NCBI RefSeq assembly: GCF_016056275.1
Contig: NZ_JAECZA010000316.1
Span: 2,656-34,655, forward strand
From: Dendronalium phyllosphericum CENA369
GTDB taxonomy: Bacteria; Cyanobacteriota; Cyanobacteriia; Cyanobacteriales; Nostocaceae
Direction of reading: 5' to 3'
DNA: 32,000 bases
The notes beneath the pieces were generated by a model that was not told where the DNA came from, did not search any database, and saw only the letters and a program-made list of their open reading frames with translations. Shown here in pieces: positions 37-21,832 of this stretch. The position numbers were made by a program, and so were the translations under genes. Every line of letters begins with the position of its first letter. Positions within the stretch are counted from its first letter, which is position 1.

Positions 37-468
37 TTGACTCGTTTCTTTGTTGGCTGGTCGCTAAATTCTACAGGATTTTTTCTAGCTAAATATCTAT
101 TAATAACTGGCGGTGGCGTTAACTTGTGGTTGGCAATTACGCTCTCGTTTTCTATATGCAGCGTTGGCTCTCTGGCTGGGTTAACGGGCTTGAGAATTAA
201 TTACAACAGTGACGGATTAGAGGTTGATAATATGCAAAATCTGTTTAAAACTGCTGGTGGCTTAGTGTTTGCTGGTGTCACAACTTGGTTAGCTGTTAAA
301 GACTATAAGTATTTTGAGAATTTGACTAAAGAAACTGTGACCCAGATTAATCAAGATATCCAAACCATTGAAAAACAAAATCCACAATCAGACCCTTGGG
401 TAAGTATTGCAGTCGCGGTGGCTTTATTCATTGGTTCCATTGCAATTATTTTTAAGGTACGAGAATGA
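37..468 (+). CDS. small integral membrane protein (hypothetical); frame is open back to nt 1, so the true 5' end may lie upstream of the window
   Basis: 143-codon ORF with hydrophobic stretches (FFLAKYLLITGGGVNLWLAITLSF, GGLVFAGVTTWLAV, WVSIAVAVALFIGSIAIIF). Its TGA overlaps the ATG of the next ORF (ATGA at 465-468). TTG at 37 is only the first possible in-frame start. Confidence 0.45.
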   Translation: MTRFFVGWSLNSTGFFLAKYLLITGGGVNLWLAITLSFSICSVGSLAGLTGLRINYNSDGLEVDNMQNLFKTAGGLVFAGVTTWLAVKDYKYFENLTKETVTQINQDIQTIEKQNPQSDPWVSIAVAVALFIGSIAIIFKVRE

Positions 469-1916
469 AACAAGGTGTTGTCGAGTTAGCGCTGGCTGGT
501 GTGTGTGGTGTAGCTGCAATCACGGGGCTGGCAACATCGCAAACACGCCAGCCTTACGATTTGACACAAATTCAGTTCTGCCCAAAGTCTGCAAGCGATG
601 TAGAAAGTCAAATAGCGCTGGATAAGCGTTTTTGCAACCAGCCGCGTTATGTCCTGACTGAAGAATGGCAACGTTACGGGCTGTATGGCAGTATCATTCC
701 CTACAAAGGTGATGCAATTCAATGGGTGCGTGATTTGCCCACAGACAACCCTAATCAGTTGCTTGGGTACGGGGTTGCAGTTATTGGGCTATGGGGTATT
801 GTGGGTTGCTTGCTCGTGCGTTCGCAACGCCTCAAGCGCACGGATTATGAATTGGGGGAACTCGAAAAGACTGGCGACTATGCAACTTGGCAGCAAAACA
901 AGCACAAACGAGAAGTTAAGCAGCATTCGACCCAGCTTTACACTGAGCGCCTGAAAGATGGACTGTCAGGACTGGACACAGAAGAACGCAAAGCACTAGG
1001 ACTGACTGATGAGGAGAACGAACGCGCCAAGGCACGTATCCAGCTTGAGGATTTTATTCTAGCCCGTGCTGTTAATAATTCTGTGATGGATAAAACCATT
1101 GCTGAGAATCTGCGGGATAAGGCGAAAGCGGATCAGGAACGGGGCAAGATTGAGGGCAAAACCAAAAGCGCGATCGCAAACAGTGACAATCATCCTTTGA
1201 CTGACCAGCGCCTCATCAGTGATTTAATCGAAGCACTCAAGAATCATGAAGATGGCTGGCTGTGGAAGGTTATCGACAATCAAAAGCCCGTTTGGGTGCT
1301 AGGAGAAGCTGGAAGCGGTAAATCAACCCTAGCAGCTTCGATTGTGATGCTCAGAGAATATCTGTTTGATATGCCCTTGTATCAGCTGATAGATGCACAC
1401 GCCGGGGAGAATCTTAGAAACGCATGGAGATATTTAAGCCCTCAGTTGATAGCTAAAACAGAATCAGAGATAGGACAGGCTTTTGATGATGCGCGTGAGC
1501 GTTGGCTGGACAGAATTAATAATCAACCTGATAAGCGACCGCAACAGTTATTAGTTGATGAATTCACTAACTATTCTGAGTCTGACATCACCAAAGAACC
1601 TGCTAAAAAGTTTGTTAAAGCGTCTCTTAGCGACCCTAGAAAAGCGGAAGAAAGATTAGTTTGTATTGCCCATTTCTTCACTAATACTGCTGTGGGTGGC
1701 AGTGATGGAACTGCTAAAGGTAGAGCTAGAGGAACTATTCAAATTGACCGCAAAACTGCGGATGGTAAAACACCTTTAAAGGTAGCAATAATTAACGGTT
1801 TAAATAATGCAGAGGGCGATGCAGAAGTAGATAAAAAGGTGACAATTCCTAGTTGGTTGACTCCTGAAAGTATTCACAAGTATTTTAACGGACAACCTAT
1901 TGATTTTGATGATTAA
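465..1916 (+). CDS. membrane-anchored P-loop NTPase, function unknown
   Basis: Two N-terminal hydrophobic segments (VVELALAGVCGVAAITGLA; LLGYGVAVIGLWGIVGCLLV) are followed by a charged coiled-coil-like stretch. Walker A is VLGEAGSGKST and a Walker B-like motif is QQLLVDEF. The start overlaps the upstream stop. Confidence 0.6.
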   Translation: MKQGVVELALAGVCGVAAITGLATSQTRQPYDLTQIQFCPKSASDVESQIALDKRFCNQPRYVLTEEWQRYGLYGSIIPYKGDAIQWVRDLPTDNPNQLLGYGVAVIGLWGIVGCLLVRSQRLKRTDYELGELEKTGDYATWQQNKHKREVKQHSTQLYTERLKDGLSGLDTEERKALGLTDEENERAKARIQLEDFILARAVNNSVMDKTIAENLRDKAKADQERGKIEGKTKSAIANSDNHPLTDQRLISDLIEALKNHEDGWLWKVIDNQKPVWVLGEAGSGKSTLAASIVMLREYLFDMPLYQLIDAHAGENLRNAWRYLSPQLIAKTESEIGQAFDDARERWLDRINNQPDKRPQQLLVDEFTNYSESDITKEPAKKFVKASLSDPRKAEERLVCIAHFFTNTAVGGSDGTAKGRARGTIQIDRKTADGKTPLKVAIINGLNNAEGDAEVDKKVTIPSWLTPESIHKYFNGQPIDFDD

Positions 1917-2127: not shown

Positions 2128-3642
2128 TTGAGTAATAGTTTTGATGTGGAATATCAAAACAGGGAATGCCTACACTTTATGAACGAAAAAATATATTCAA
2201 GCTTAGATTTAAGCAAATCATTGTCAGACTTTAAAGAAAAAGTTACGAAACTTTTAGAAACTAAAAATCTGAGCAAATGGTCGGCTCAAACTTTTAAAGC
2301 ATTAGAAGCAGAAATTAGAAATACCGCATTAAGGTTAGCAGGAGAATGTGTAGCAGTTTTACTAAATAAACTATCTCAATCTCAAGAAGCTCTAAATATA
2401 GCAATAAATCAAACAAGAAGTTTGTCAAATCAAGAAATCAAGAAGTACGGTAATTATACTAGGCAGATACTAACAGTTGGAAATGTGAAAGTCACTCTCT
2501 CATTACCATATATGGTTGAGCGTTACAAACAATCACACCAAAAGGGGAAATATTTAAAGTTAGGATTTTGCCCATTTCTAAAATGGTTAGGAATAGAAGA
2601 AGGATTAACACCCCTTATTTGGACAACAATTACAAAATATGGAGCAATTGCTGGTTCGTTTGAAGCTGCACGCACAATCTTAACAGATTGGGGAGTAAAA
2701 ATTAGCTTAAAACGAATAGAACGTCTCACATATTATTTTGGGAAAATTGGCATAAATTTACGTCAATCTAAATTATCAAGTTTAGAGATGGGTAATCTAC
2801 CTACTCTTAATGTTCTCAAAGACCAGCGTGTTGTTATTGCCGTGGATGGCGGGAGAACGAGAATTCGGATTAACAAAAAAGGTAGACGTAAGCTCAAAAC
2901 TAATCGTCTAGGTTTTACCGGAGAATGGGTTGAGCCAAAATTATTAACTATTTATACAGTGGATGAGCATGGTAGAAAAATTAGGACATCATCTCTACCT
3001 ATTACTAATGACGGGACATATTTGGGTTATCAAGAGTTTCTAAATATTCTAGAAATGTATCTAGTTGATTTGGGAATAAGCCAAGCTAAACAGGTTTTGT
3101 TAGTTGCTGATGGTGCTGAATGGATTTGGAAACATATTCCACCTTTATTGGAGAAACTAAAATGTCCATCTGCCACTTATCAACTATTAGATTTTTACCA
3201 CGCAGCCTCACATTTGCACGACTTTGCTGACGCTGCTTTTACTACAGATAATGAGCGTCAATCATGGTTTAAAAAAGCTCGTAAAGCTTTAAAAAAAGGT
3301 CAAGCTTTAAATTTAATGAGAGATATGGGTAAATTTATTGCCTCAGCTACTGGAGAGCGTTGTAAAACTTTAATTCGGGAACGAAATTATATTCTTAAAG
3401 CTTATCGTAGGCGGCTATTAAACTATCCTCTCGTTGCCTCCCATCAGCTACCACTTGGTAGTGGTGCAGTTGAAAGTTTAATTCGTCAAGCTGTTAATTT
3501 ACGTATGAAGGGAAACGGTAAGTTTTGGCTTCCAGATAACGCAGAGATTATGTTACATCTGCGATGTCAATGGTGCGCTTATAGTTGGGACAATTTTTGT
3601 AATTCTATTTTTGATTCTTTTCTTAATCCCAGCAGTGCTTGA
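2128..3642 (+). CDS. DDE transposase (ISKra4-family-like)
   Basis: 504-aa ORF with acidic-triad contexts VIAVDGGRTRIR and LLVADGAEWIWKHI. It also has LLDFYHAASHL and GSGAVESLIRQAVNLRMKGNGKFW, which I recognise as typical of ISKra4-type transposases. The start is uncertain: TTG 2128 or ATG 2179. Confidence 0.8.
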   Translation: MSNSFDVEYQNRECLHFMNEKIYSSLDLSKSLSDFKEKVTKLLETKNLSKWSAQTFKALEAEIRNTALRLAGECVAVLLNKLSQSQEALNIAINQTRSLSNQEIKKYGNYTRQILTVGNVKVTLSLPYMVERYKQSHQKGKYLKLGFCPFLKWLGIEEGLTPLIWTTITKYGAIAGSFEAARTILTDWGVKISLKRIERLTYYFGKIGINLRQSKLSSLEMGNLPTLNVLKDQRVVIAVDGGRTRIRINKKGRRKLKTNRLGFTGEWVEPKLLTIYTVDEHGRKIRTSSLPITNDGTYLGYQEFLNILEMYLVDLGISQAKQVLLVADGAEWIWKHIPPLLEKLKCPSATYQLLDFYHAASHLHDFADAAFTTDNERQSWFKKARKALKKGQALNLMRDMGKFIASATGERCKTLIRERNYILKAYRRRLLNYPLVASHQLPLGSGAVESLIRQAVNLRMKGNGKFWLPDNAEIMLHLRCQWCAYSWDNFCNSIFDSFLNPSSA

Positions 3643-4159: not shown

Positions 4160-4195
4160 GCTTACATTGTGATTTGTTGTTTAGACAATGTAAGC
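4160..4195. promoter_or_regulatory. 11-14-11 perfect inverted repeat upstream of the recombinase gene (candidate recombination site or operator)
   Basis: GCTTACATTGT (4160-4170) and ACAATGTAAGC (4185-4195) are perfect complements, ending 9 nt before ATG 4204. A third near-copy, ACAATGTAAAG, lies at 4774-4784 just after the gene stop. Confidence 0.4.
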
Positions 4196-4203
4196 TAGAC
4201 CCT

Positions 4204-4773
4204 ATGAAAATAAACCGCTTCGGTCGAGCAGAAATCCTTACCCCCGACCAAATTAATCTCCTATTTACCGAGGGGTTTGTCAACCCACGCGATCGGGCTT
4301 TGTTTGGCGTGTGCCTTTATGCTGCCTGCCGGATCAATGAAGCCTGCACTTTGGCACTAAAAGATGTGTTTGGCAGCAACGGTGTCAGAGGCGTGTTAGT
4401 GCTGCGTAGTGTCAACACCAAAGGCAAGCGGGACACAAGGGAAATTCAAGTGCATCCCAAGCTTAGGGAATATTTAGAAGAGTACAACCCGAACCGCCGC
4501 AAGGAGTTCTTGTTTCCGGGGCGGCATGGGTTGGGACACATCCACAAGGTCAGTGCTGATAAAATCCTTAGAGATACCTGTGTGCGGCTGGGCATTGAGG
4601 GGGTTAGTACACACAGCTTCAGGAGGACTGCGTTAACCAGGATGAGCGATGCTGGGATACCGTTGCGCCACATTCAGGAGATATCGGGACATCGGACTTT
4701 GGCAGCTTTGGAGCGTTATTTGGGTGTAACCGAAAAGCAGAAGCAAAACGCGATCTCTGCTTTGGATTTTTGA
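4204..4773 (+). CDS. tyrosine recombinase / site-specific integrase, catalytic domain only (about 190 aa)
   Basis: Catalytic signature in order: Arg in AACRINEA, Lys in NTKGKRDT, HSFRRT (HxxR), SGHRT (His), and LERYL (Tyr). ATG 4204 is preferred over the in-frame TTG 4174 in the ORF track. Confidence 0.85.
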   Translation: MKINRFGRAEILTPDQINLLFTEGFVNPRDRALFGVCLYAACRINEACTLALKDVFGSNGVRGVLVLRSVNTKGKRDTREIQVHPKLREYLEEYNPNRRKEFLFPGRHGLGHIHKVSADKILRDTCVRLGIEGVSTHSFRRTALTRMSDAGIPLRHIQEISGHRTLAALERYLGVTEKQKQNAISALDF

Positions 4774-5043
4774 ACAATGTAAAGAAATATAGTTTAAGCG
4801 ACTTTTCTGTTAGGAAGGAAGCAGGCGAATATTAGCGATCGCTCAAAGATAGGGTCTTGTTTGCTAGGCTAAAGCGGAAGATTTAAAATTTAGGTAGATA
4901 ATCAAGGCTAAATAGTCTCTATGCCTCACTCCATTATGTCAACTCTTTATACTTGCTGACTATTGGCCTTAGATAAGACTAGAGTTTATTGGTACAGCGA
5001 ATTAAATTAATCAAGTAAAAATTATTGAGATTGTAGCTAAATA

Positions 5044-7092
5044 ATGATGCATTTTAAGTTTTCACCAAAAATTCTGCAAAGGTTGGGAGAAGAACTCGTT
5101 CCAAATCCAGACCAAGGAATCATCGAATTGGTTAAGAACTCTTATGATGCTGATGCTACTGAATGCACAGTAGAACTTATCAAAACTAGTGCCATAGGTG
5201 GCTCGATTATTATTTCAGATAACGGTGTTGGTATGGATAAAGATGCCATTAGCGAGGGATGGCTGGTGCTAGGGCGCTCGAAAAAGGCTATCCGTGAAGT
5301 TACTCAATTAGGTCGCTTACCTGTAGGTAATAAAGGATTAGGTAGGTTAGCGGCTCTACAGATGGGTTCTCAAGTATTCTTAAAAACTAGACCTAAACAT
5401 GAGCCAGGAACTGAATATTCTTTAACGATTAATTGGGATGATTTTCAGGAAGCTGATGTAGTAGAAGATGTTCCTTTTGATGTAAAAAAAAGTAGTACAA
5501 ATCAACGGCATGGAACTGATATTATCGTCAACAATCTTAAAAAAATCTTTAATAAACATGATATTGTAAGACTAGCTAGGGAACTTTTACTGCTAGCAGA
5601 TCCATTTGAAAATCATGCAGGTTTTAGCCTGAAACTTATTGCTCCAGAATTTTCTGAAATTGAAAAGCAAGTAAACAATGCTTACTTTGATGATGCCGAA
5701 TATCATTTGCAAGCTAGTATAAATGAACTTGGGATTGCTGAAGCAAATTTGCTGGACTGGCAGAATAACGTAATTTTTCAGGCAAAACATAGTGATATTT
5801 CTCAAGAGCTTTACAAAACACCTCCAACAGAATTTGAATTGTGGGTATTCTTTCTAAATCCTCAAACTTTTTCAGCTAGAAAAACTTCTGTTTCTTTCAC
5901 ACAAGTTAGAGAATGGCTTGCTCAAGTAGGGAATGTTCGTCTCTACCATCGAGGTTTGCGGGTAAAACCCTATGGAGATCCGGACGATGATTGGTTGAAT
6001 TTAAATTATGCACGAGCAAGAAATCCAGAGGTACGTCCTTCAACTAAAACAGTTATTGGTAAAGTCATTGTTAAAGACCCTGAAGATATGTTACTTCAGA
6101 AAACTGATAGGCTTGGTTTTATTGAAAATGAAGCTTTTTTAGAGTTAAAACGCTTCGCAATTGATGTGTTGGAATGGATGGCGAAAGAAAGGCTTAAAGT
6201 CACTGAAACGCAAAGACAAAGGGTTAAGAAACAAGTTCCTCGTGATATTACACAAGCTAAAGCTAGGATTGAAGAAGTTATTGAAGAAGTTCCTCAAGAA
6301 TCTCGTCCTAAAATTCTAGAAGCTGTTCAGCAATACGAAACTGTAACAGAACGTGAAACCAAGGTATTACGTGAAGACCTTCAGCTTTATCGTAGTCTGG
6401 CTACAGCCGGAACAACCGCAGCAGTTTTCGCTCATGAATCTAGCAAACCAGTGACTTCAATTGAAAAAATAGCTAACAGAATAGAAAAAATGGGTAAAAA
6501 ATTTCTGGGAGAAAAATATGAACACTATTTAGGAGAACCAGTTACAAAGCTTTATCAAGTAAGTAAGTCATTACTACGCTTTTCTAATTTTCCGCTGCAT
6601 CTTTTGAAAAGAGAAAAACGTCGTACTGGTGTTGTAGATGTTCATAGTGTTATTGATGATATCGTTGCAGTTTTTCAAACTTTTTTTGATGAAGGTAAAA
6701 TTCAAGTTATCAAAGAAAAAGTTGACACTCAACCTTGTATTTATGGAAGCGATGCTTTGCTAGAAGCAATTATTACAAATCTTTTCACAAATGCTATAAA
6801 TGTTTTTAATATTGAAGGTGGACGCATAGAAGAACGTCAAGTAATTATCAGAACTGAAGTTCAAGGAAGTAATTTAAAAATTAAAGTTTTAGATAACGGT
6901 TCAGGAATTCATAATATAAAACTAGATGAAATTTGGCTACCTGGTAAAACTACTAGGGAAGGTGGCACAGGTTTAGGATTGACAATTGTGAGAGATTCTG
7001 TAACTGATCTGGGAGGCTCGGTAGATGCAATTCCAAAAGGGGAATTAGGTGGAGCAGAATTTATTGTAGAACTAACACTTATTAGAGAATAA
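5044..7092 (+). CDS. histidine kinase core fused to an additional N-terminal GHKL (HATPase_c_3 / MORC-Hsp90-like) ATPase module
   Basis: N-terminal module: ELVKNSYDADAT (N box), SDNGVGM (G1), GNKGLGRLAA (G2). C-terminal kinase core: H box FAHESSKPVTSI, N box ITNLFTNAINV, G1 LDNGSGI, G2 GGTGLGLTIV. No hydrophobic membrane segments were seen. Confidence 0.8.
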   Translation: MMHFKFSPKILQRLGEELVPNPDQGIIELVKNSYDADATECTVELIKTSAIGGSIIISDNGVGMDKDAISEGWLVLGRSKKAIREVTQLGRLPVGNKGLGRLAALQMGSQVFLKTRPKHEPGTEYSLTINWDDFQEADVVEDVPFDVKKSSTNQRHGTDIIVNNLKKIFNKHDIVRLARELLLLADPFENHAGFSLKLIAPEFSEIEKQVNNAYFDDAEYHLQASINELGIAEANLLDWQNNVIFQAKHSDISQELYKTPPTEFELWVFFLNPQTFSARKTSVSFTQVREWLAQVGNVRLYHRGLRVKPYGDPDDDWLNLNYARARNPEVRPSTKTVIGKVIVKDPEDMLLQKTDRLGFIENEAFLELKRFAIDVLEWMAKERLKVTETQRQRVKKQVPRDITQAKARIEEVIEEVPQESRPKILEAVQQYETVTERETKVLREDLQLYRSLATAGTTAAVFAHESSKPVTSIEKIANRIEKMGKKFLGEKYEHYLGEPVTKLYQVSKSLLRFSNFPLHLLKREKRRTGVVDVHSVIDDIVAVFQTFFDEGKIQVIKEKVDTQPCIYGSDALLEAIITNLFTNAINVFNIEGGRIEERQVIIRTEVQGSNLKIKVLDNGSGIHNIKLDEIWLPGKTTREGGTGLGLTIVRDSVTDLGGSVDAIPKGELGGAEFIVELTLIRE

Positions 7093-7097
7093 TTTTT

Positions 7098-7799
7098 ATG
7101 ATCATGACACCAGTTTTGAATGATAGAAGAATAGCTATCATTGATGATGATAAAAACCTAGCAGAGTTAACAGCTTGGGAAGTAGAAGAAGCAGGATATG
7201 AACCATTTTTATTAGACAATAAACACTTTCTCAAAGTTAATGATTTAGTATCTGTGATTAGAGAAAATAGTCAAGGTGCTGTGTGCGATCACCGATTGAT
7301 GAATTCTGGATTTGCTAACTTTTATGGAGCAGAATTAGTTGCAAATCTATACGATTTGAAATTTCCATCACTGTTGATAACTCAATTTACACAGATGGAT
7401 ACAGCTTTTTCTATTAGAAAATGGAGACATAAAATACCTGTACTACTAAGTCGAGATGAAGCCAATGCTTCAAGTATTGCTAAGGGAATAGAGGATTGTA
7501 CTTTAGAACTTTCTGGGAAAGTACCGAGTACCAGAAAACCTCGTAGAACGATAGTTAGGATTGCTAATATTGATGAAGAATCTAATGAACGTGTTATAGA
7601 TGCATTTATTCCAAGTTGGAATCCCTATACGGCTGTCCGTTTTCCAGCTTCTCTGATTCCAGAGAATATTAGAGTAGCATTAAAACCAAATATGCGTTTG
7701 TTTGCTCACGTAAACACAGGAGCAGAAAAAGCTGATGATCTATATTTTGAGAAATTTGAATTAGCACCTGAACCAGATGAAGATGACGGACTCGCCTGA
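7098..7799 (+). CDS. receiver (REC)-like domain protein with uncharacterised C-terminal domain
   Basis: RIAIIDDD (acidic pocket), AVCDHRL (candidate phospho-acceptor Asp) and SLLITQF (conserved Thr position) follow REC order. The C-terminal ~100 aa has no recognisable motif and no HTH. It starts 5 nt after the kinase stop and overlaps the next gene by 23 nt. Confidence 0.55.
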   Translation: MIMTPVLNDRRIAIIDDDKNLAELTAWEVEEAGYEPFLLDNKHFLKVNDLVSVIRENSQGAVCDHRLMNSGFANFYGAELVANLYDLKFPSLLITQFTQMDTAFSIRKWRHKIPVLLSRDEANASSIAKGIEDCTLELSGKVPSTRKPRRTIVRIANIDEESNERVIDAFIPSWNPYTAVRFPASLIPENIRVALKPNMRLFAHVNTGAEKADDLYFEKFELAPEPDEDDGLA

Positions 7800-8802
7800 A
7801 CTTATTATTTTAGATGTTGGACATGGAAATTGTGCGTTAATCAGGGATGCAAATGATGTAATTGTTATTGACTGTCCACCTGGGGGTACGTTGGTAGAAA
7901 CTCTTGAATATCTATCTATCAAAGAAATTTTACATATTCTCATTTCCCATTCTGATGCAGATCATATTGCGGGTATGATTGACTTACTCTCAAATGAAGA
8001 TATCAAAATTCATAATGTACATATAAACCCTGATGCAATTAAGAAAAGTGAAATTTGGAAGGATGTACGTTATGCTTTAAAAGACGCACGCCTACGGGGA
8101 ACTAAAGTTTCATCAGAATTAACAACAGCAAAAACGGGAAGTTTGAACATTGGTACAGTTAATATAGAAGTTCTTGCACCAACACCTGAATTAAATTTAA
8201 GTGGTGCTGGAGGAACTGATTTACAGGGGCGGCGATTAACTTCCAATTCAATATCAGCCGTTATAGGTATAGTTCACGATTCTCATAGAGTGGCTATACT
8301 AGCAGCAGATATTGATAATGTAGGCTTTGACAATTTGATTCAAGACCAAAAGAGTTTGAGTGCTGATATACTTGTTTTTCCTCATCATGGTGGAAAACCA
8401 GGAAGTGCAGATCCTAAAATATTTGCCCAGCAATTTTGTACTTTTATCCAACCAAAGTTAATAATATTTTCAATTGATAGAAATCGTTTTAATAATCCCC
8501 GCATAGAAATAGTAGAGGGTATTATTTCTTCAGTCCCAGATGCTCATATTTTATGCACTCAATTATCCAAACAATGTACTACTAGTCTTCCTAGTTCAAA
8601 GCCTACACATTTAAATACACTTCCTGCCAGAGGGCTTAATAGTAATAGCTGTTGTGGAGGAACTATTACTATTAAAATAGATGGTAGCAAGACAACTTAT
8701 GCTGAGATGGCTTTACATAAAGAGTTTATTATTAATCAAGTAACTAGCCCAATATGTCGAAAGTTTTTATCCATCTTTGAACCGGATAGCGTGTCCATTT
8801 AA
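7777..8802 (+). CDS. metallo-beta-lactamase-fold hydrolase, ComEC/Rec2-type (probable nuclease)
   Basis: ILDVGHGNCALI, ILISHSDADHIAGM (HxHxDH-type metal motif variant) and VFPHHGGK match the ComEC C-terminal MBL pattern. The tail is Cys-rich (C..C..CCGG..C). Confidence 0.8.
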   Translation: MKMTDSPELIILDVGHGNCALIRDANDVIVIDCPPGGTLVETLEYLSIKEILHILISHSDADHIAGMIDLLSNEDIKIHNVHINPDAIKKSEIWKDVRYALKDARLRGTKVSSELTTAKTGSLNIGTVNIEVLAPTPELNLSGAGGTDLQGRRLTSNSISAVIGIVHDSHRVAILAADIDNVGFDNLIQDQKSLSADILVFPHHGGKPGSADPKIFAQQFCTFIQPKLIIFSIDRNRFNNPRIEIVEGIISSVPDAHILCTQLSKQCTTSLPSSKPTHLNTLPARGLNSNSCCGGTITIKIDGSKTTYAEMALHKEFIINQVTSPICRKFLSIFEPDSVSI

Positions 8803-8934: not shown

Positions 8935-11900
8935 TTACCTATACTTTAGTTTCCTGAGACGTGCCAAAGCACTTACTACTGGAGGGTCTTTGACATCTTC
9001 AGGAATAATTACCTTGTCGTCAGGTTGAATACCACAAACATCAAAATCATGTTCCCCTATTTGCCATGCTGGCCGAATAAATATTTGCTTTTTCAGAATT
9101 CCAAGTTCTGTGAAGAAGTTTGCGCTAGAACCATCTTGAGATACACAGCCAGGAGTAAGAATATAAAAACCTAACTTTTCAAACATATCTATAAATTGGT
9201 CAAGATTCCTAGAATCTCTTGGATTCATAGTGTTAATCCGATACGTGAGGATAAATTGTGAGTCACTAGAAGCTTTTAGCCAGTCAGGATTCATTCCAAT
9301 AACTACGCGATAAGCTGCTGGATTGTCAGCATCGATTCCAGTAATAATAGATACTCTGATTTTTTCCTCAACATCTTCGTCTCCAATGTCTTTCCTCCAC
9401 TGATAAAAAATTTTCTTGCTTGCATTCTCATCTTGGAACAAAAGTGCAAGCTCTAAAAGTGGGAGATTACGATTATTTGGGATCAATCCGAACCCTGTTC
9501 CACTCCAACTAGCTTTATCCCAAAGATGAATATCAAGCAAGGAGAAGACCTTACGTTCGCGGTGTTTTAGGTGATCGACACTCTTGAGTTCAGGCGGAGG
9601 CTCACCGTGTCCTGGCTTGGGTGAAAATACATTAGCTCGTTCTTCAGAGATATTTTGAACTGTTTCATTGTTCCAGGCATTTGTTCGTTGAGGCGGAAAG
9701 TGCTTATCACTGTCGCTCAATTTCCAGTCCATAAGTTGCAGTTTTGGACTTTTACCCAAGATATTCCAAACTGCAATAGCTACGTTTGTAAAATCAAGTG
9801 CGCGAGAAAAAGCCAGTTCATCTTGTAAAAGTCCTTTAAAATACTGTTCCGGGTTTGATACAAACGCTATCTTAAAAATTACTCGAATAATTAATTCAGC
9901 CAGCGTTTTGCCTAATGATTCAGAATTAAGGTCTGCTATGTAAGATTCATTGACAGAATGTTTTACTTCTATGAGAGTTTCAAGAGTTTCTCCACCTTCC
10001 TCTTTAATGTGAAAATCAATAACGTTAGCAACAGAACCCGATGATACTATTTGAAATCTAATATTTGGTTGATGAGGGAATAATTGCGAATCAAGACTTG
10101 TTGCCAGAAAAGCTTCAAATGCAGCAAGAATTGACTCCGCAATAAACAGCGATCTACTATTATTTAAAACTTCAGCAACTACGTTGCAGCCAAGAACTTG
10201 TGAGCGGAGTTCTACTGTACCCTCTGCTAAAAATTCTGGTAGTTCTGGTAGGTCATGACTTGCTGGTTGTGCTATCCAATCATTAAAAAACTTACGTACA
10301 CTCGCCTCATCTTCCTCCTCTGGAATCCAACCCTCAGAACGAAGATAATCTTCATAACCTAGTGCGTACAACGATGCCATGAATGAATGATGAAACCCAA
10401 GTTCTTCGAGAACTGCTGGCAAAAACTCTAAACACTGCAAATCCTTAAGGGCAGTTTTAAGAAGAAGAATCCCAAGTACCGCATCTTGAGTTTCCCTCTC
10501 TTTAATAAATTTCTCTTTAGCTTCTTCATTGAGTCCAATTGCTTGTGCAATAACTGTAGAGGTTTCAATCCAAGCGAGTGTGATTGGAATCCGCCCTAAT
10601 TGTAATTCGAGCCAGACAAGACGTTGTAGACAGGCAAAGGCTTGAATAGTAATTGTGCTGTTTTCCCAATACTCATTAAAAGCTTGGGATGCTGCTAGGA
10701 GCATATTGGAACGCGCAGCCCACAGTAAGCCTATCGACTCATAAGCACTTGCACATAGAGATAGTGCAGCAATTAACTCACCATGACACTCACGCATAGC
10801 TAAGTTATGCTGCGCTCGACCAAGAAGATGAATTGCTTCGTAACGGTTTCCGCCAAGAAGTTTTTGCCTTCCTCGTGTCAAAAGCATACGTCCTGAAGTT
10901 GCTTTACTCTCGCGTTGTTGAGAGAGTATAAGTACAGCTTCAAAAAGTTCATCGAAGCCAGGATCATCAGGCAAATATTTACCGAGTTCCATGAGAATCT
11001 CGATCAATGGAGCTACGGGAAAGTTGACTAAACCTTCGCCCTCTGCAAATACCTTGCGAAATTCCTCAAGTATCCTTTTCAACTCAGCAGGTTCATGTCT
11101 GGACTCACTTAGATCCATTAGTAACTCAATGGATCTTGCTTGTAAGGCAGTGCTTGGTCTATCTTGATCAGCCTGGAGACGCTGTAATTCAGTATGTAAA
11201 GTTTTGGTTCGTGCTTCTAGCTTTGCATCGTAGGCTTCAAGTTGTGACCGTTGAACGGTTGTCCACAGAAGTTGCCATAGATTAGCTAATTTTTCAATAT
11301 CTGTGACTTGGCTGCTTTCAATTGCTAGACGCTCAACATCGTCGTAAATGCGGTTAAACGTGTGAAAGTCATCATGCCACCAATAAGCAGTCCATGCTTT
11401 GGCGTAAGCACACCGAAGCTTTTGCTGATGCATTCCATATTGTTCGGCTATACGCTCGGCTCGTGCAAAACGTCCCTCAACCTCTACACGTGGTAATTCA
11501 AGTTCACGTGATAGAATAGCTGCCTCAAGACAATCCTCAACAAGTTGATACTCGACACCTTGATAACGAATAGGATCTTTTATCTGCGTCTCTAGTTCTT
11601 TCAATTCAGCTTCACGAGATGTGTCTAAAGCCCCCTTTTTAACAGCTGGCGTAAGAGGCAAATTGATTTTAAGAGTTTCTACAGCTAGATTTTCTCGCTT
11701 GTTCTGAAACACCTTATCGAGTATCCAAGTTCTATCTAGAACTCGTACATAAATGTTGTACTGTTTTCTCAGTTCATCTTCAATGTTGGCTCGATCTTTA
11801 TCTTTGATATATCGACTACTGATGAAATAAATTAAAGTGTAGCTACGCTGCGTTTCTACAATTCCTTGGACATCAGAACGAACTTTTGAACGCCACTGTT

Positions 11901-12273
11901 GTTTTGCACTGACGGCAAATGCCCAACGTTCTGAGGCAGCTTCACGCCCAACTCCCTCATACCAGCGAAGTGAAACAGCATCGGATACAGGGTAGGTTTC
12001 AGAGTCTACCTTGCTGTCTCCTCCTCCAGTGGGGCCTGTTTGCGGTAAAAGGTTAGGACAAAGCTCTTTTTCAGCTAATCTGCGGCAGAAATGTTCAAAA
12101 TCCTTTTCTTGGCTACGGCTAGTCAATGTTTCTAAGTGATATTCCAAAAAGTTTCGATCTAGCAACGGCTCCCCAACTACTTGCGTATCGGAGAAAAGAT
12201 AAGGTCGCCGTGCCCTCATAAAATCCGAAGGGCGGAACGTTGCTGACTCAGGTTGCTGACGTTTTTCAACCAT
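8935..12273 (-). CDS. large (1112 aa) protein: N-terminal restriction-endonuclease-like (Mrr/PD-(D/E)xK-like) domain, long helical TPR-like middle, unknown C-terminal domain
   Basis: The ORF is long and uninterrupted. FEHFCRRLAEKEL..TGPTGGGDSKVD..WAFAVSAKQQW..YTLIYFISSRYI resembles the Mrr-type E..D..(E/Q/S)xK core. The middle is helical and repeat-like (for example GNRYEAIHLLGRAQHNLAMRECHGELIAALSLCASAYESIG). I found no convincing Walker A. Confidence 0.6.
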   Translation of the reverse strand: MVEKRQQPESATFRPSDFMRARRPYLFSDTQVVGEPLLDRNFLEYHLETLTSRSQEKDFEHFCRRLAEKELCPNLLPQTGPTGGGDSKVDSETYPVSDAVSLRWYEGVGREAASERWAFAVSAKQQWRSKVRSDVQGIVETQRSYTLIYFISSRYIKDKDRANIEDELRKQYNIYVRVLDRTWILDKVFQNKRENLAVETLKINLPLTPAVKKGALDTSREAELKELETQIKDPIRYQGVEYQLVEDCLEAAILSRELELPRVEVEGRFARAERIAEQYGMHQQKLRCAYAKAWTAYWWHDDFHTFNRIYDDVERLAIESSQVTDIEKLANLWQLLWTTVQRSQLEAYDAKLEARTKTLHTELQRLQADQDRPSTALQARSIELLMDLSESRHEPAELKRILEEFRKVFAEGEGLVNFPVAPLIEILMELGKYLPDDPGFDELFEAVLILSQQRESKATSGRMLLTRGRQKLLGGNRYEAIHLLGRAQHNLAMRECHGELIAALSLCASAYESIGLLWAARSNMLLAASQAFNEYWENSTITIQAFACLQRLVWLELQLGRIPITLAWIETSTVIAQAIGLNEEAKEKFIKERETQDAVLGILLLKTALKDLQCLEFLPAVLEELGFHHSFMASLYALGYEDYLRSEGWIPEEEDEASVRKFFNDWIAQPASHDLPELPEFLAEGTVELRSQVLGCNVVAEVLNNSRSLFIAESILAAFEAFLATSLDSQLFPHQPNIRFQIVSSGSVANVIDFHIKEEGGETLETLIEVKHSVNESYIADLNSESLGKTLAELIIRVIFKIAFVSNPEQYFKGLLQDELAFSRALDFTNVAIAVWNILGKSPKLQLMDWKLSDSDKHFPPQRTNAWNNETVQNISEERANVFSPKPGHGEPPPELKSVDHLKHRERKVFSLLDIHLWDKASWSGTGFGLIPNNRNLPLLELALLFQDENASKKIFYQWRKDIGDEDVEEKIRVSIITGIDADNPAAYRVVIGMNPDWLKASSDSQFILTYRINTMNPRDSRNLDQFIDMFEKLGFYILTPGCVSQDGSSANFFTELGILKKQIFIRPAWQIGEHDFDVCGIQPDDKVIIPEDVKDPPVVSALARLRKLKYR

Positions 12274-12687: not shown

Positions 12688-13455
12688 GTGAAATTGACCA
12701 AGATAATCTCACTCTTCAATCAAGCGGGTGGTGTCGCCAAATCGACGACAGCCCAAAATCTTGGCTATCACCTTTCACTACGCCACCATCAAGTATTGTT
12801 AATAGACATAGACCCCCAAGGTTCCCTCACCACGTTCATGGGGTTGGAACCAGCCGATCTAGAAAAAACTATTTACGATGCCTTGATATCGGAAGAAGAG
12901 GAACCTATCCCTATACATCGGGACTTAGACGGCATAGACTTAGCTCCTGCTAACATTTTGCTAGCTAATGCCGAACAAGAACTTATATTTGCTGAACTGC
13001 GAGAATTTCGACTCAAAGAGGTACTCACTCCTCTATTAGATAGCTATGATTTTATTTTGATTGACTGTCCGCCCAGCTTGGGTATTCTTAGTCAAATTAG
13101 CTTGGTTGCCTCTACTCATGTGCTGGTTCCCATTCAGTGTCAGTTCAAGGCATTGAAGGGAACAGACTCGCTGTTGAAAACAGTGGCCAGAGTGCAGCGC
13201 AAGCTGAACCGCTCCCTCAAGATAGCGGGATTCTTCCCCACAATGTACTCTGCTAGTAATTCCTTAGACCAAAGAACCTTAGAATCAATTCGCGATCAGC
13301 TGTCGAGTTTGGCAACGATATTTCCTCCCCTACCTCGTGCTACAGCAGTGGCAGAAGCAGCTGAGTATGGTAAACCTTTGGCATTATGCCCTAATAAAAA
13401 TCCTGCTATTCTCCGCGTCTTTGATGAAATAGCAGAAGCTATGGAGGTTTTATAG
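12688..13455 (+). CDS. parA: ParA-family partition ATPase with atypical Walker A
   Basis: KIISLFNQAGGVAKSTTAQNLG lies at the N-terminus, with ILIDCPPSLG and the usual ParA length. It sits directly upstream of parB. The start is GTG. Confidence 0.85.
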   Translation: MKLTKIISLFNQAGGVAKSTTAQNLGYHLSLRHHQVLLIDIDPQGSLTTFMGLEPADLEKTIYDALISEEEEPIPIHRDLDGIDLAPANILLANAEQELIFAELREFRLKEVLTPLLDSYDFILIDCPPSLGILSQISLVASTHVLVPIQCQFKALKGTDSLLKTVARVQRKLNRSLKIAGFFPTMYSASNSLDQRTLESIRDQLSSLATIFPPLPRATAVAEAAEYGKPLALCPNKNPAILRVFDEIAEAMEVL

Positions 13456-14379
13456 ATGAGTCCCAGACGAGCAAGCCAACCACCTGCTGATAGAAGCAAA
13501 CTCAAGAACGTCGCCCTGTTCAAAGAGGATGATGAGAATTTAGTTCCTACTAAGGTGTCACTGGACAAGATTATTCTCCCCTCTACTCAACCTCGGCGTT
13601 ATTTTGACCCCAAAGCTATGCAATCTTTGGTGGAGTCGGTGAAACGTGAAGGCATCCTCCAGCCTTTATTGGTTAGACCAGTAGGGGATAAGTATGAGTT
13701 GGTGGCAGGAGAGCGCAGATATAGGGCAGCACAAGAAGCAGCTTTAACAGAAGTGCCGATAACGGTGCGGGAGATGTCGGATGAGCAAGCGGTACAGTAT
13801 GCGCTCACCGAGAATCTACAACGGTCAGACTTAAACCCAATAGAAGAAACTGAAGGAACCTTGCAACTGTTAGCGCTGCGATTGGGATGCGAAACAGCAG
13901 CAGTGTCTACTGTACTCTACAGAATGGAGAATGAAGCCAAAGGAAAAATTACCCGAAACGTTTCGGGTAATTCCGAGGCAGAAATAGTAGAAAAAGTGTT
14001 CGCTGAATTGGGAAAGATGAATTGGCAATCATTTGTTCGCACTCGGCTACCACTGTTGAAACTGCCAGAGGAGATTTTATCAGCCCTGCGTGCTGGACAA
14101 ATTGAGTACACCAAGGGCAAGGAGATTGCCAAGCTGACATCGAAAGAAGAAAGAATTGAACTCCTAGAAGCTGCAATTTCGCTATCTTTGTCCCTTTCAG
14201 AAATTCAACAGCAGGTCAAAGCCAAACAACCAGTTGCCACACCTCCACCACTGCAAAGTCGTTTAGAGGCTACATACAAGAAAGCGAAAAGATCAAAGGT
14301 GTGGGACAATCCCCAGAAGCAGAAAAAACTAGAATCTTTGTTGAGAGAGTTGGAAACTTTGATGGCTGATGAGGGGTAG
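13456..14379 (+). CDS. parB: ParB/Spo0J-family partition protein
   Basis: LQPLLVRPVGDKYELVAGERRYRAAQEAAL and ALTENLQRSDLNPIEE are classic ParB box motifs. The ATG immediately follows the parA stop. Confidence 0.9.
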   Translation: MSPRRASQPPADRSKLKNVALFKEDDENLVPTKVSLDKIILPSTQPRRYFDPKAMQSLVESVKREGILQPLLVRPVGDKYELVAGERRYRAAQEAALTEVPITVREMSDEQAVQYALTENLQRSDLNPIEETEGTLQLLALRLGCETAAVSTVLYRMENEAKGKITRNVSGNSEAEIVEKVFAELGKMNWQSFVRTRLPLLKLPEEILSALRAGQIEYTKGKEIAKLTSKEERIELLEAAISLSLSLSEIQQQVKAKQPVATPPPLQSRLEATYKKAKRSKVWDNPQKQKKLESLLRELETLMADEG

Positions 14380-15399: not shown

Positions 15400-17550
15400 C
15401 TACAGCCTATTCACAATATTTCCATTAAACCAGGCAATCTTCTTTAAGTCATGACATAACCATTCATAAGCTAGCTCAGTTGCAGAGTTTGGTTTGAATA
15501 CATCTAGTACTTCTGAATTTATAGAAGCGTAAAGCCATGTTGATGCTTCTTTCCTTAGTGATAACAGTTGACTGTTCAAAACAGAAATAGAATAATCACA
15601 GCCTTTTGGAAATAAATTTTCTTTTGTGGGAAAAAAGCACAAGTCTACGCAGCTTTGTTTGCCTTTCGGCAGTGGTTCCCAATAAGATATTATCCAAGGT
15701 TGGTTATTATATGAATTTGGTAAAATAATTTTTCCTACAAAACGCGCTGGCAGCGTTACTGCCGTTGTCAGCCTGGGCGCAAATTTGGAAAAATACGTAT
15801 TAACTAGTTGCTGGTATCCCTCAATAGCACCTTCGTAAACAGCTTTTGCACGAACTAATAATTGTAGTTCGGAGTAGCTCTCCCATATCCATCCATCTGT
15901 AATATCAATATCTGGTTCAGGCCACGGAGAATGCAACTCGGCTTCTCCATCTTGGCGGAGGCTGTTAACTTGAGCTATAAGGTGCTTAAGACCGTAGCAG
16001 TATTCGTACTCGTTTACCCAAGAAGGAATATTCAATGATGACTTAGAAAGACATTCTTCAATTTCACTCAGAGAAATAGGACTATAATTTAACTCCCCAC
16101 GACTAGTAACTATAAGTGCGGTCTGCCAAACAATTTCTTTAAAAATTGATCCGTGGTTGACTGGCAGCATACGCTTTTCCAATAATTGAGATAGTGAACT
16201 ACTAAGCTCATTAAGCGTCAAATTCCAAGCCAAAGCTGATTTATGATTAGCCACCTTAACGCCTGTTAATCCAAACCAATTGGATAATAATTCTGGCTCA
16301 GAAAATGGCGATATAACAATATCAGGCAGATTCTCATCACCACAGTACCAACCAGTTGTCAGATACATTTCGTCTGCGTCAACACCAATTGGTAAAAGCG
16401 TATTATCCTCACGTACTGGTGCAATTAACTTAGAAAGTGGAGCAATACCATCTATCCATGCCTGCATCGCTGTTCGTATTCTTCGCCCAAATTCCAGTGA
16501 TAATGGTAAAGGAACTGATTGTGTGACGTTCCATCTTGTTATTGCCAGCTCTTCCTTGACAATCTCTGAAATAAATGCAGGATGTTTCTGGACTAGTGGC
16601 ACAAGTACCTTTGATACTTGCTCATAACTGTAATTACCAACAAAGATAGCTAGCGGATAGCGCCAACGTTCGAGCCGCTGTGGCTCAAGTTTGAGATCAT
16701 TGGGGTCAATGATGCCAGCAGCTAAACTTTGCGCTGCAAACCATTGTGTTAGAATTGGCAGCGGGAAACCAATAGTTCCTGCATTCTCAACAACTAACCC
16801 CGTATTTAAAAGCATCTGAAATTCTGATGTTGTTCCGCCGATGTCAGTCTTAGAAACTACACCTATACTACAGTCAGTAGCTTGAGCAGCAAGGCATAGT
16901 AGTAATTGCTCAACATTAGAGTTGTTTGCTCTTGCTTTTTCGAGGGAACGTTCAACAAGATTTGACAGTAAATCCCCAGGCGAGGTTGATGCTATTGTGC
17001 CTTGGTTTTTTAAATAGACACCAAGCAATACTGCAAATAAAGGTCGGCGAATAGCATGACGGATGGACTCCGGCCATTGGGAAGAAACATATGGCGGAAT
17101 TGGTTGTTTTGAAATTCTTTCTACAAGAGCATATGCTTCATTCTCTGTAAGTGGAGGAACTTGAACAGCCTCTTCAACTTTAGATAAAGCGGGGATAGCT
17201 CTGCTAGTAATTACTAGGGTAGTTTTTTCCCATGTATTAACAAGAATGCGAGCTTCATTAAGTAAATGTGCTGCTAAGGCGCTTCCTGCTTCGTCAGCCC
17301 CGTCAATGATTGCGGTAACACCTTGTGAGAAGGACTGTCCTAGCTTGCTGATTTCTTCTTCTATAGTTTTTTGTAACTGTCCTGCCACCTGCTGCGCTTT
17401 TAAATCCACAGGTATAGGAGCTGCGGGATTTTTGCGGGCCTGTTTAATTGCATCTTGGAAGAGGCGTTGTGCAAGCAATGACTTACCTACACCAAAATCA
17501 CCGATTAGTATTATTAAAGGGTTTTCATCATTAGGTTGAAACTTAGACAA
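15400..17550 (-). CDS. NACHT-type STAND NTPase (NLR-like) with non-repetitive C-terminal region; frame stays open upstream to 17715
   Basis: Walker A is LIGDFGVGKS and the NACHT-style Walker B is AIIDGADEAG. The ~450-aa C-terminal region has no recognisable repeats. The only start is TTG 17550, and the 55 codons upstream are stop-free and in frame with the 149-aa ORF. Confidence 0.8.
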   Translation of the reverse strand: MSKFQPNDENPLIILIGDFGVGKSLLAQRLFQDAIKQARKNPAAPIPVDLKAQQVAGQLQKTIEEEISKLGQSFSQGVTAIIDGADEAGSALAAHLLNEARILVNTWEKTTLVITSRAIPALSKVEEAVQVPPLTENEAYALVERISKQPIPPYVSSQWPESIRHAIRRPLFAVLLGVYLKNQGTIASTSPGDLLSNLVERSLEKARANNSNVEQLLLCLAAQATDCSIGVVSKTDIGGTTSEFQMLLNTGLVVENAGTIGFPLPILTQWFAAQSLAAGIIDPNDLKLEPQRLERWRYPLAIFVGNYSYEQVSKVLVPLVQKHPAFISEIVKEELAITRWNVTQSVPLPLSLEFGRRIRTAMQAWIDGIAPLSKLIAPVREDNTLLPIGVDADEMYLTTGWYCGDENLPDIVISPFSEPELLSNWFGLTGVKVANHKSALAWNLTLNELSSSLSQLLEKRMLPVNHGSIFKEIVWQTALIVTSRGELNYSPISLSEIEECLSKSSLNIPSWVNEYEYCYGLKHLIAQVNSLRQDGEAELHSPWPEPDIDITDGWIWESYSELQLLVRAKAVYEGAIEGYQQLVNTYFSKFAPRLTTAVTLPARFVGKIILPNSYNNQPWIISYWEPLPKGKQSCVDLCFFPTKENLFPKGCDYSISVLNSQLLSLRKEASTWLYASINSEVLDVFKPNSATELAYEWLCHDLKKIAWFNGNIVNRL

Positions 17551-21453: not shown

Positions 21454-21832
21454 CGGTTTCCTCATCCTCCTCAGATATGAAGGTTTTGGCAATTTCTCGT
21501 TGGCAGTGCCGCAACAGTTCTAGTAGTTCGTTTAATAGTTCTGGATCTGCTGGCGGTGGCAGTTGCATTTTGATGGCAGTGTTGGCAACTTTGGCCAATT
21601 GGTTGATGTTGTTGCCGATGCGGGAAAGTTCCAAGTAGGTGGCTACTGTAACTCTGCCCAGTCGCGGCGGCGGTGGTGGAATTGGTCGCAGTAACATACA
21701 ACGTCTTGTCAGTTCTGCCAAGCTCATACTCGCGTCTTCTGCTTTTGACCGAACCATCTCATATTCAATTGGGCTGAACCGCGCTTGCAGTCTTTTGGTG
21801 CGGATGAGTGACGACGAAGAACGCTTGGTCAT
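21434..21832 (-). CDS. mobC: MobC-family relaxosome accessory protein
   Basis: RFSPIEYEMVRSKAEDASMSLAELTRRC (RHH-like) and IGNNINQLAKVAN are typical of MobC. It lies immediately upstream of, and overlaps, the relaxase gene. Confidence 0.85.
   Translation of the reverse strand: MTKRSSSSLIRTKRLQARFSPIEYEMVRSKAEDASMSLAELTRRCMLLRPIPPPPPRLGRVTVATYLELSRIGNNINQLAKVANTAIKMQLPPPADPELLNELLELLRHCQREIAKTFISEEDEETDDWQPD

Follow-up and report, generated by a model that had tools for sequence, protein, structure and literature searches.

A mobile kinase, receiver and ComEC-type hydrolase cassette of cyanobacteria: a candidate phosphorelay-gated defence module related to Ambrosia

The stretch of DNA analysed here, 32,000 nucleotides from the cyanobacterium Dendronalium phyllosphericum CENA369 (contig NZ_JAECZA010000316.1, positions 2,656 to 34,655) and referred to below as the window, harbors a compact cassette of three genes that are called A, B and C. 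The genes lie on the same strand, with a gap of 5 nt between A and B and an overlap of 23 nt between B and C (Table 1), and they encode a histidine kinase with an additional N-terminal GHKL ATPase module, a receiver protein and a soluble hydrolase of the metallo-beta-lactamase (MBL) fold. An earlier interpretation made from the letters of the DNA alone, the sequence-only reading, had described this operon with identical coordinates, strand, gap and overlap, and had judged by eye that the cassette is AT-rich; the measured G+C content is 0.357 (35.7%) for the cassette and 0.427 (42.7%) for the remaining window. No transmembrane segment is found in A, B or C, and no helix-turn-helix (HTH) was detected in any of them with Pfam, NCBIfam or Foldseek.

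Table 1. Features of the cassette and of the surrounding window, in window coordinates (aa, amino acids; ORF, open reading frame)
Feature	Position	Strand	Length	Remark
Gene A	5044-7092	+	682 aa	
N-terminal MORC/MutL-like GHKL ATPase module of A	5044-5523	+		PDB relatives, motifs
H464 codon of A	6433-6435	+		Predicted autophosphorylation site, H-box FAHES
C-terminal catalytic (CA) GHKL domain of A	6631-7083	+		Pfam HATPase_c
Gene B	7098-7799	+	233 aa	
REC domain of B	7122-7517	+		Model, Foldseek
D64 codon of B	7287-7289			Predicted phospho-acceptor
OB-like five-stranded beta-barrel of B	7530-7772	+		Topology beta1-beta2-beta3-helix-beta4-beta5
Conserved acidic tail of B	7773-7796			Follows the OB-like barrel
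Gene C	7777-8802	+	341 aa	
C-terminal extension of C	8554-8757	+		Contains C260, C267, C293, C327
5' leader	4785-5043	+		Travels with the cassette in some loci; DNA alignment
Promoter-like site	4861-4889			TTGCTA-17-TAAAAT, inside the leader; candidate
Phage_integrase ORF	4174-4773	+	199 aa	Immediately 5' of the cassette; Pfam/NCBIfam
ISKra4-family transposase	2128-3642			5' of the cassette
Convergent ORF	8935-12273	-	1112 aa	Without family match
ParA/ParB	12688-14379			
MobA/VirD2-type relaxase	19195-21492	-		
PrimPol-DUF3987 primase-helicase	27957-30947	-		
STAND-type NTPase	465-1916	+		P-loop protein with weak NACHT similarity
STAND-type NTPase	15400-17550	-		NACHT protein
STAND-type NTPase	24988-27739	+		NB-ARC ORF, then large TPR ORF

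Protein A contains two GHKL domains, which Pfam assigns to HATPase_c_3 (residues 25-158) and HATPase_c (572-678). Among solved structures the N-terminal module is closest to MORC3, MORC2 and MutL (5e-7 to 1e-4), proteins whose GHKL modules clamp or loop DNA in an ATP-dependent manner. In an alignment of nine diverse homologs of A, the GHKL motifs E28/N32/D35, D59-G61-G63 (D59xGxG) and K97-G98-L99-G100 (K97GLG) are invariant. Residues 420-680 align to histidine-kinase cores in NCBIfam and, among PDB sequences, to ZraS at 4e-15, with NtrB and other kinases also aligning. The region around H464 falls on the DHp domain of ZraS and other kinases, and the pair H464-E465 is invariant in the same nine homologs, as are the N-box (N579/N583), G1 (D617/G621) and G2 (G641-G645) boxes of the catalytic domain. 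The Pfam domains and the absence of a transmembrane segment bear out the cytoplasmic kinase with an extra N-terminal GHKL ATPase that the sequence-only reading had recognised.

Protein B has no match in Pfam, NCBIfam or PADLOC, and its fold is predicted from a model. The AlphaFold prediction, made with 30 homologs, has a mean predicted local distance difference test score (pLDDT) of 91 and folds the N-terminal 140 residues as a receiver; of the top 50 PDB structures returned by Foldseek, nearly all are receiver domains, with a template modelling (TM) score of about 0.7 on the target. In the model, D16/D17, D64 and T95 are located at the C-terminal ends of beta1, beta3 and beta4, and the residues corresponding to D17 and D64 do not vary among 52 diverse representatives of the family. 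The residue after beta5, at position 119, is Arg or Lys in most members yet variable, and is R119 here. The C-terminal domain, when modelled alone, is predicted as a barrel of five strands, the third and fourth of which are joined by a helix (pLDDT 86). Foldseek found no significant PDB match for it (best E 0.02), the weak matches being almost all OB folds, and its sequence profile found no usable match among PDB sequences; OB-like is thus a descriptive label, without family assignment. Within this domain R146, W174 and N206 are near-invariant. The receiver-like nature of B and its lack of an HTH had been anticipated, and its C-terminus, which had been called unrecognisable, appears OB-like from these weak structural matches. 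The further claim that nothing in the operon could bind a promoter holds in so far as no HTH is present; the OB-like character of its C-terminal domain nevertheless makes it conceivable that B binds nucleic acid.

Protein C matches Pfam Lactamase_B, and the closest solved sequences are the MBL domains of ComEC (2.4e-5), with which it has the motifs SHSDADH and PHHGG in common. In the PADLOC comparison it resembles the MBL effectors of DRT, Lamassu and AVAST systems. Across 27 diverse homologs the residues D13, H16, H58, D60, D62, H63, D178, D180, H203 and H204 are conserved, as are the four cysteines of the C-terminal extension, which may form a structural metal site. With its metal ligands intact, C is as the sequence-only reading had described it, a ComEC-type MBL hydrolase, and is the predicted nuclease effector of the cassette.

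The three genes form a conserved and mobile unit. A genome scan with B located 27 loci in at least 10 cyanobacterial genera, and in 23 of these A, B and C are intact, with the same order and overlaps; one locus is decayed and three are remnants. The sequence-only reading had made its proposal depend on the three genes being conserved together, and they are. The genes that flank the cyanobacterial copies represent about 15 unrelated contexts, and DNA similarity between loci begins 0-260 nt 5' of A and stops at the stop codon of C. The ratio of nonsynonymous to synonymous substitution rates (dN/dS) is 0.15-0.39 for A, B and C in cyanobacterial comparisons, which is the mark of purifying selection on all three genes. 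The synonymous distance (dS) is 0.13-0.4 among closer loci and rises to about 1.0-1.2 for L019 and L023, the most distant ones (loci are cited by number), and the low values are consistent with recent horizontal spread. Among the contexts, a CBASS-like TIR effector adjoins the cassette in L001, the closest relative, a HEC-03B/NsnB/AriA-like ATPase lies near that of L012 and a Mokosh-like helicase near that of L016; CHAT, TIR, Uma2 and integrase genes are also represented.

Damaged copies of the cassette are found as well. In a Nostoc metagenome-assembled genome (L024:8397-11193) A and C are fragmented, on a plasmid of Pseudanabaena sp. ABRG5-3 (L030:9704-11657) an IS982 insertion splits C, and in L025-L027 just small pieces of B or C are left.

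The receiver Asp and the kinase gene appear to be lost together. Within the B family the position of D64 is Asp in 252 of 271 sequences and another residue (Ala, Thr, Ser etc.) in 18. Five of the Asp-less homologs were looked up in their contigs, and none has an adjacent A-type kinase, although three of the five keep the overlapping MBL gene; a kinase is present at every Asp-bearing locus examined. By sequence the Asp-less homologs divide into two groups or more, so more than one event is involved, although these homologs are not fully independent of one another. This pattern is as expected if phosphorylation by A is the sole reason why D64 is kept. A working pair of B and C in the absence of the kinase would fit as well, since the two genes persist where A is missing.

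The kinase-less, Asp-less branch (L121:58-3174, L122:2401-3937, L124:1923-6870, L126:4314-8540 and L127:1152-10178) adjoins a divergent RecQ-like DEAD-box helicase, a DprA-like (DNA_processg_A/LDcluster4) gene and a second helicase, and an Eco57I/TaqI_C-type N6 methylase and RNase III are often close by. Some of these loci retain the MBL partner and others lack it, and a PLD-family gene lies upstream in L121. The adaptor may have been taken into a distinct system here, one for DNA processing or for defence.

Searched with a profile of B, a library of 1.84 billion representative proteins yields 1059 clusters (50% identity), 335 of them with E <= 1e-30. The best 150 of the 1059 matches are nearly all 215-280 aa in length and full-length to the profile, with few fragments. 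The branch that carries the triad is found in Cyanobacteriota, Bacteroidota, Betaproteobacteria, Geobacteraceae and many metagenomes. On plasmids of Hymenobacter volaticus and Burkholderia aenigmatica it takes the form of a four-gene operon, in which a gene for an N6-adenine DNA methylase precedes A, B and C and its stop codon overlaps the start of A. The same order is seen on metagenomic contigs, and a metagenome scan with the A alignment, annotated locally with hidden Markov models, added more such loci. An N6 methylase is present in all non-cyanobacterial relatives that have a visible upstream region, co-directional and translationally coupled to A in about 21 loci and divergent in one, and toxin-antitoxin genes, integrases and insertion sequence (IS) elements flank these copies. 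No methylase is found in the window, in any cyanobacterial locus or on the Pseudanabaena plasmid, and no homolog of the family methylase lies within 10 kb in 24 cyanobacterial loci. When sequences of A are joined in a neighbour-joining tree, the loci without the methylase group into one derived clade, nested within lineages that carry it, which indicates that the methylase was lost once in the cyanobacterial clade. This loss also explains why the sequence-only reading, confined to one of these loci, was blind to the methylase.

More distant homologs of A (24-30% identity) fall into two groups. The first has the order (methylase)-kinase-receiver-HNH, and is represented by plasmid P2 of Deinococcus gobiensis and about 16 metagenome loci; HNH partners occur only with these distant homologs of A. 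The second comprises two-gene units of a kinase and a partner of about 330-450 aa, several of them near Dcm/Vsr. The partner proteins of Enterobacter and Campylobacter have receiver-domain similarity in Pfam below threshold, and the Agrobacterium partner has none in Pfam. A homolog with about 26% identity to A (L040:4971-9401) is carried by 43 Campylobacter pTet-type conjugative plasmids, where it is paired with a 331-aa response regulator and is convergent with a dcm methylase. Similar units (L037, L039) are found on Agrobacterium plasmids near Vsr, Dcm and AbiE, and also on Enterobacter plasmids. Judged by its gene content, the A family is one in which different effectors are placed on a common sensor.

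The function of the cassette can be approached through Ambrosia, an experimentally validated five-gene phage-defence system of Pseudomonas aeruginosa, AbrR-AbrA-AbrB-AbrC-AbrD (bioRxiv 10.1101/2025.09.30.679545). Its parts are an XRE regulator (AbrR), an N6 methylase (AbrA), a "histidine kinase/HSP90-like ATPase" (AbrB), a receiver (AbrC) and an HNH endonuclease (AbrD); all five proteins are required, and the substitutions N40A in AbrB and D60A in AbrC abolish phage defence (10.1101/2025.09.30.679545). When compared with the Abr protein sequences of the supplementary table of that report, A aligns with residues 1-399 of AbrB by BLASTP (27% identity over 392 aa, E 8e-32), an alignment that covers the GHKL and middle regions and in which N32 of A is the counterpart of N40. 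The receiver of B matches that of AbrC at 9e-6 with BLASTP and 8.8e-6 with hhalign, with D64 opposite D60. Since A and the receiver of B are homologous to these essential components, a defence role is supported, and the cassette is probably an anti-phage or anti-plasmid system. The relay from kinase to receiver to MBL nuclease that the sequence-only reading had put forward, with its defence-like role, gains from this homology as well as from the conserved mobile unit, the conserved residues and the joint loss of Asp and kinase. We consider it likely, with a probability of about 0.6, that the cassette is a phosphorelay-gated MBL-nuclease defence module of Ambrosia type, belonging to a methylase-less cyanobacterial lineage.

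A mechanism can be proposed along these lines. A would act as a soluble sensor whose MORC/MutL-like GHKL module responds to an infection cue, the likeliest being foreign or abnormally structured DNA. This response would switch on the histidine-kinase core, leading to autophosphorylation at H464, and the phosphoryl group would then move to D64 in the receiver of B. In phosphorylated B, the OB-like barrel and acidic tail might engage C differently, or deliver DNA to it, such that C is set free or switched on and degrades DNA. Our proposals on the trigger and on phosphotransfer are inferences, as are those on whether control works by activation or by relief of inhibition, on the substrate of C and on the outcome, which could be direct degradation of the invader or abortive infection. 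The output would be post-translational, because no DNA-binding transcription-factor domain occurs anywhere in the operon.

Several points weigh against this reading. The defence role is argued from homology and context, and the loss of the methylase leaves the discrimination of self from non-self without an explanation. The MBL fold includes enzymes other than nucleases, and OB folds can bind nucleic acid, which makes an output at the level of expression conceivable. The canonical receiver Lys after beta5 is replaced by Arg, Lys or another residue at position 119. Genomic context gives a mixed answer: recognised defence genes, enrichment near which the sequence-only reading had proposed as a check, lie within four genes of the cassette in only about 3-4 of the roughly 15 cyanobacterial contexts, and several copies adjoin housekeeping genes (an EF-G paralog, PutA, PPDK). 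The defence-island signal is real but moderate. Finally, those who described Ambrosia prefer a model in which the receiver protein controls transcription (10.1101/2025.09.30.679545).

This last point introduces the alternative that survives best, in which B, once phosphorylated, uses its OB-like domain to bind DNA or RNA and turns on expression of C or of other genes during infection, so that the nuclease would be controlled through its abundance. It has the Ambrosia precedent behind it, in that operon reporters were induced on infection and a transcriptional action of the receiver was proposed (10.1101/2025.09.30.679545). The fold of the C-terminal domain of B is also suggestive, as many OB folds bind single-stranded nucleic acid and Arg and aromatic residues are conserved in this domain, and a conserved leader accompanies the cassette in some loci. 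About 220 nt of this leader, 5' of A, are conserved at the DNA level in the window, L001, L004, L011 and L018, yet it is unconserved in about half of the loci. It contains no plausible small ORF, no HTH ORF and no Rfam match, and the promoter-like site within it is a weak candidate, as a promoter and terminator scan gave no more consensus matches than expected from shuffled sequence. Moreover, B has neither an HTH nor a winged-helix domain, and to our knowledge OB folds do not act as promoter-specific activators. B and C overlap and share a transcript with A, which means that a regulator and the target proposed for it would be made together, and the survival of B-C pairs after kinase loss suggests a direct partnership between the two proteins. 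Control of expression as the output is on balance unlikely. A search for an upstream regulator of XRE or C-protein type was also negative: no small regulator ORF is conserved 5' of the methylase in sister loci or 5' of A, and such a regulator, being conserved neither in the leader nor in the sister loci, was rejected.

A second alternative retains the logic of restriction-modification, with the cassette sensing methylation that is supplied in trans by methylases of the host. Cyanobacterial hosts carry many solitary DNA methylases, which could provide a protective or marking modification and would account for the loss of the dedicated enzyme, and the near-constant company of an N6 methylase outside the cyanobacteria, together with the single derived clade that lacks it and the purifying selection that still acts on the genes after its loss, would accord with such a supply. 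However, no methylase-like ORF is present in the window, the family methylase has no homolog in the 10-kb surroundings of 24 cyanobacterial copies, and AbrA methylation gave phage no protection from Ambrosia (10.1101/2025.09.30.679545). The methylase may therefore not be a classical self-marker, and modification in trans seems improbable.

Third, the cassette could serve a purpose other than defence, as two-component control of a DNA-processing hydrolase for competence or uptake, repair, plasmid maintenance or addiction. The kinship of C to the ComEC competence nuclease domains, the plasmid character of the window, the chromosomal copies that sit amid housekeeping genes, and the DprA-like and RecQ-like neighbours of the kinase-less branch would all suit such a role. 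C nevertheless lacks the membrane channel, OB domains and any transmembrane segment of ComEC, and the distribution of the cassette is patchy and horizontally spread, with variable insertion sites and with decayed or IS-disrupted copies (L024, L030). Its relationship to a validated defence system and to methylase-linked operons also speaks for a defence role, and a non-defence function is a decidedly poor prospect. The idea that the triad is a non-functional remnant drifting after methylase loss, for which the degraded copies L024, L025-L027 and L030 could be cited, is very improbable in view of the selection data, the 23 copies that are intact in all catalytic residues and the spread of the cassette across genera.

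If the preferred reading of a gated nuclease is taken one step further, the cassette would exemplify a phosphorelay, distributed across phyla, that ends directly on a nuclease: a kinase driven by a MORC-like ATPase and a receiver-OB adaptor that licenses an MBL enzyme, with a methylase-free lineage in the cyanobacteria. This stronger form is put forward tentatively, at somewhat less than even odds. Were it true, the sensor itself, and no epigenetic mark, would tell self from non-self in the cyanobacteria, as their lineage is without a dedicated methylase, and systems that combine two-component and restriction-modification elements, Ambrosia included, would be post-translationally gated immune nucleases, not restriction systems that are induced transcriptionally. 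The lack of an HTH component in this branch questions the transcription-based model of Ambrosia and points to direct gating of the nuclease. The clade that has lost the methylase and the clade that has lost kinase and Asp represent natural experiments on what methylation and phosphorylation do in such systems. Filamentous cyanobacteria, which cyanophages infect, are difficult to transform, and a plasmid-borne nuclease system of this type could be one of the barriers.

The surroundings of the cassette in the window are those of a mobile element. The upstream IS and recombinase noted in the sequence-only reading are indeed present, as an ISKra4-family transposase and a Phage_integrase ORF. The shortness of the latter (199 aa), and the fact that its C-terminal 80 residues alone remain at the equivalent site in L001 (L001:7431-7670), suggest a degraded integrase from an earlier insertion event. 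The convergent ORF of 1112 aa on the other side of the cassette had been called nuclease-like, a label that is unsupported, as the protein has no match of any kind in Pfam, NCBIfam, PADLOC or PDB sequences; being beside the cassette in no other locus and without an annotation match, it was rejected as a part of the system. The presence of ParA/ParB, the relaxase and the PrimPol-DUF3987 protein points to a mobilisable plasmid, or similar element, of which the window is a part. Three STAND-type NTPase loci are also present, the first of which has 93% identity to a gene at the same relative position in Nostoc paludosum (L001). A megablast search of PLSDB plasmids with the cassette gave no match, and tblastn of B against phage genomes likewise gave none, and thus no sign of a phage-borne copy. 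Rfam found nothing over the whole window, and the repeats around the cassette are at chance level, with no terminal repeats to mark a transposon.

The cassette can be compared with four kinds of known system. ComEC/Rec2 contains the nearest solved relative of C (2.4e-5), and the two have the HxDxDH and PHHG motifs and an SNxS segment in common; of ComEC it is the MBL domain alone that aligns. However, C is a soluble protein of 341 aa that lacks the membrane channel and N-terminal OB domain, carries a C-terminal four-Cys extension, and is found in a kinase operon instead of a competence locus.

Detocs, which the sequence-only reading had named as the closest concept, reportedly comprises a hybrid kinase (DtcA), a buffer receiver (DtcB) and a receiver-PNP effector (DtcC) that form an immune phosphorelay with an enzymatic output. 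The likeness is one of concept alone, namely two-component immunity with an enzymatic instead of a transcriptional output. A is not a hybrid kinase, as it has no receiver domain, and it has a MORC-like GHKL module as its sensor; the cassette has a single receiver gene in place of two, and the effector is a separate MBL protein, not fused to the receiver. These differences in wiring had been correctly pointed out. The PADLOC models of Detocs have no match in the cassette, and with its different architecture membership of Detocs was rejected; Ambrosia and the two-component-like elements related to paraMORC are closer.

The paraMORC families of GHKL proteins have been linked to restriction-modification (Iyer et al. 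2008, PMC2292703), and HEF_HK (PF19191) and Response_reg_2 (PF19192) define two-component-like elements that are related to them and have the same link (Bellieny-Rabelo et al. 2021, PMC8011034). Like the cassette, these elements place a soluble HATPase_c_3...HATPase_c kinase-like protein beside a receiver-like gene. They are also associated with DNA methylases and nucleases, as the relatives of the cassette are with a methylase, and have a predicted role in conflicts of the restriction-modification type. The contexts described in the two papers, which are purely computational, involve C5-methylases, Vsr and HNH_2, with no MBL partner and no cyanobacteria (PMC8011034, PMC2292703). Neither A nor B matches PF19191 or PF19192 at E <= 0.01, and nor do the homologs from Hymenobacter, Burkholderia, Deinococcus, Campylobacter and Enterobacter.

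Ambrosia resembles the cassette in several respects. AbrB and A both have the arrangement HATPase_c_3, DHp region, HATPase_c; the receiver is in each case a separate protein, with homologous receiver domains in B and AbrC; the gene order is kinase, receiver, nuclease; and an N6 methylase lies upstream in the sister lineages of the cassette. In contrast, the effector of the cassette is a ComEC-type MBL protein where AbrD is an HNH endonuclease, and the output domain of B is an OB-like barrel with an acidic tail where AbrC has a helical domain that its authors call a winged HTH, the two output domains being unrelated; neither the OB-like domain nor the MBL protein has an equivalent in Ambrosia. 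The cassette also has no XRE/HipB-like regulator corresponding to AbrR, and neither the window nor the cyanobacterial clade has a methylase. Ambrosia has been reported in Gammaproteobacteria only (10.1101/2025.09.30.679545), and the relationship described here would extend it into a larger modular superfamily built on the MORC-like kinase. No description of the combination of methylase, kinase, receiver-OB protein and MBL was found in the literature. By the homologies set out above, the cassette is an undescribed variant of the Ambrosia and paraMORC kind of two-component, restriction-modification-like system and not categorically new; it defines an uncharacterised receiver-OB and MBL branch of that kind, large and widespread in cyanobacteria, Bacteroidota, Proteobacteria and metagenomes.

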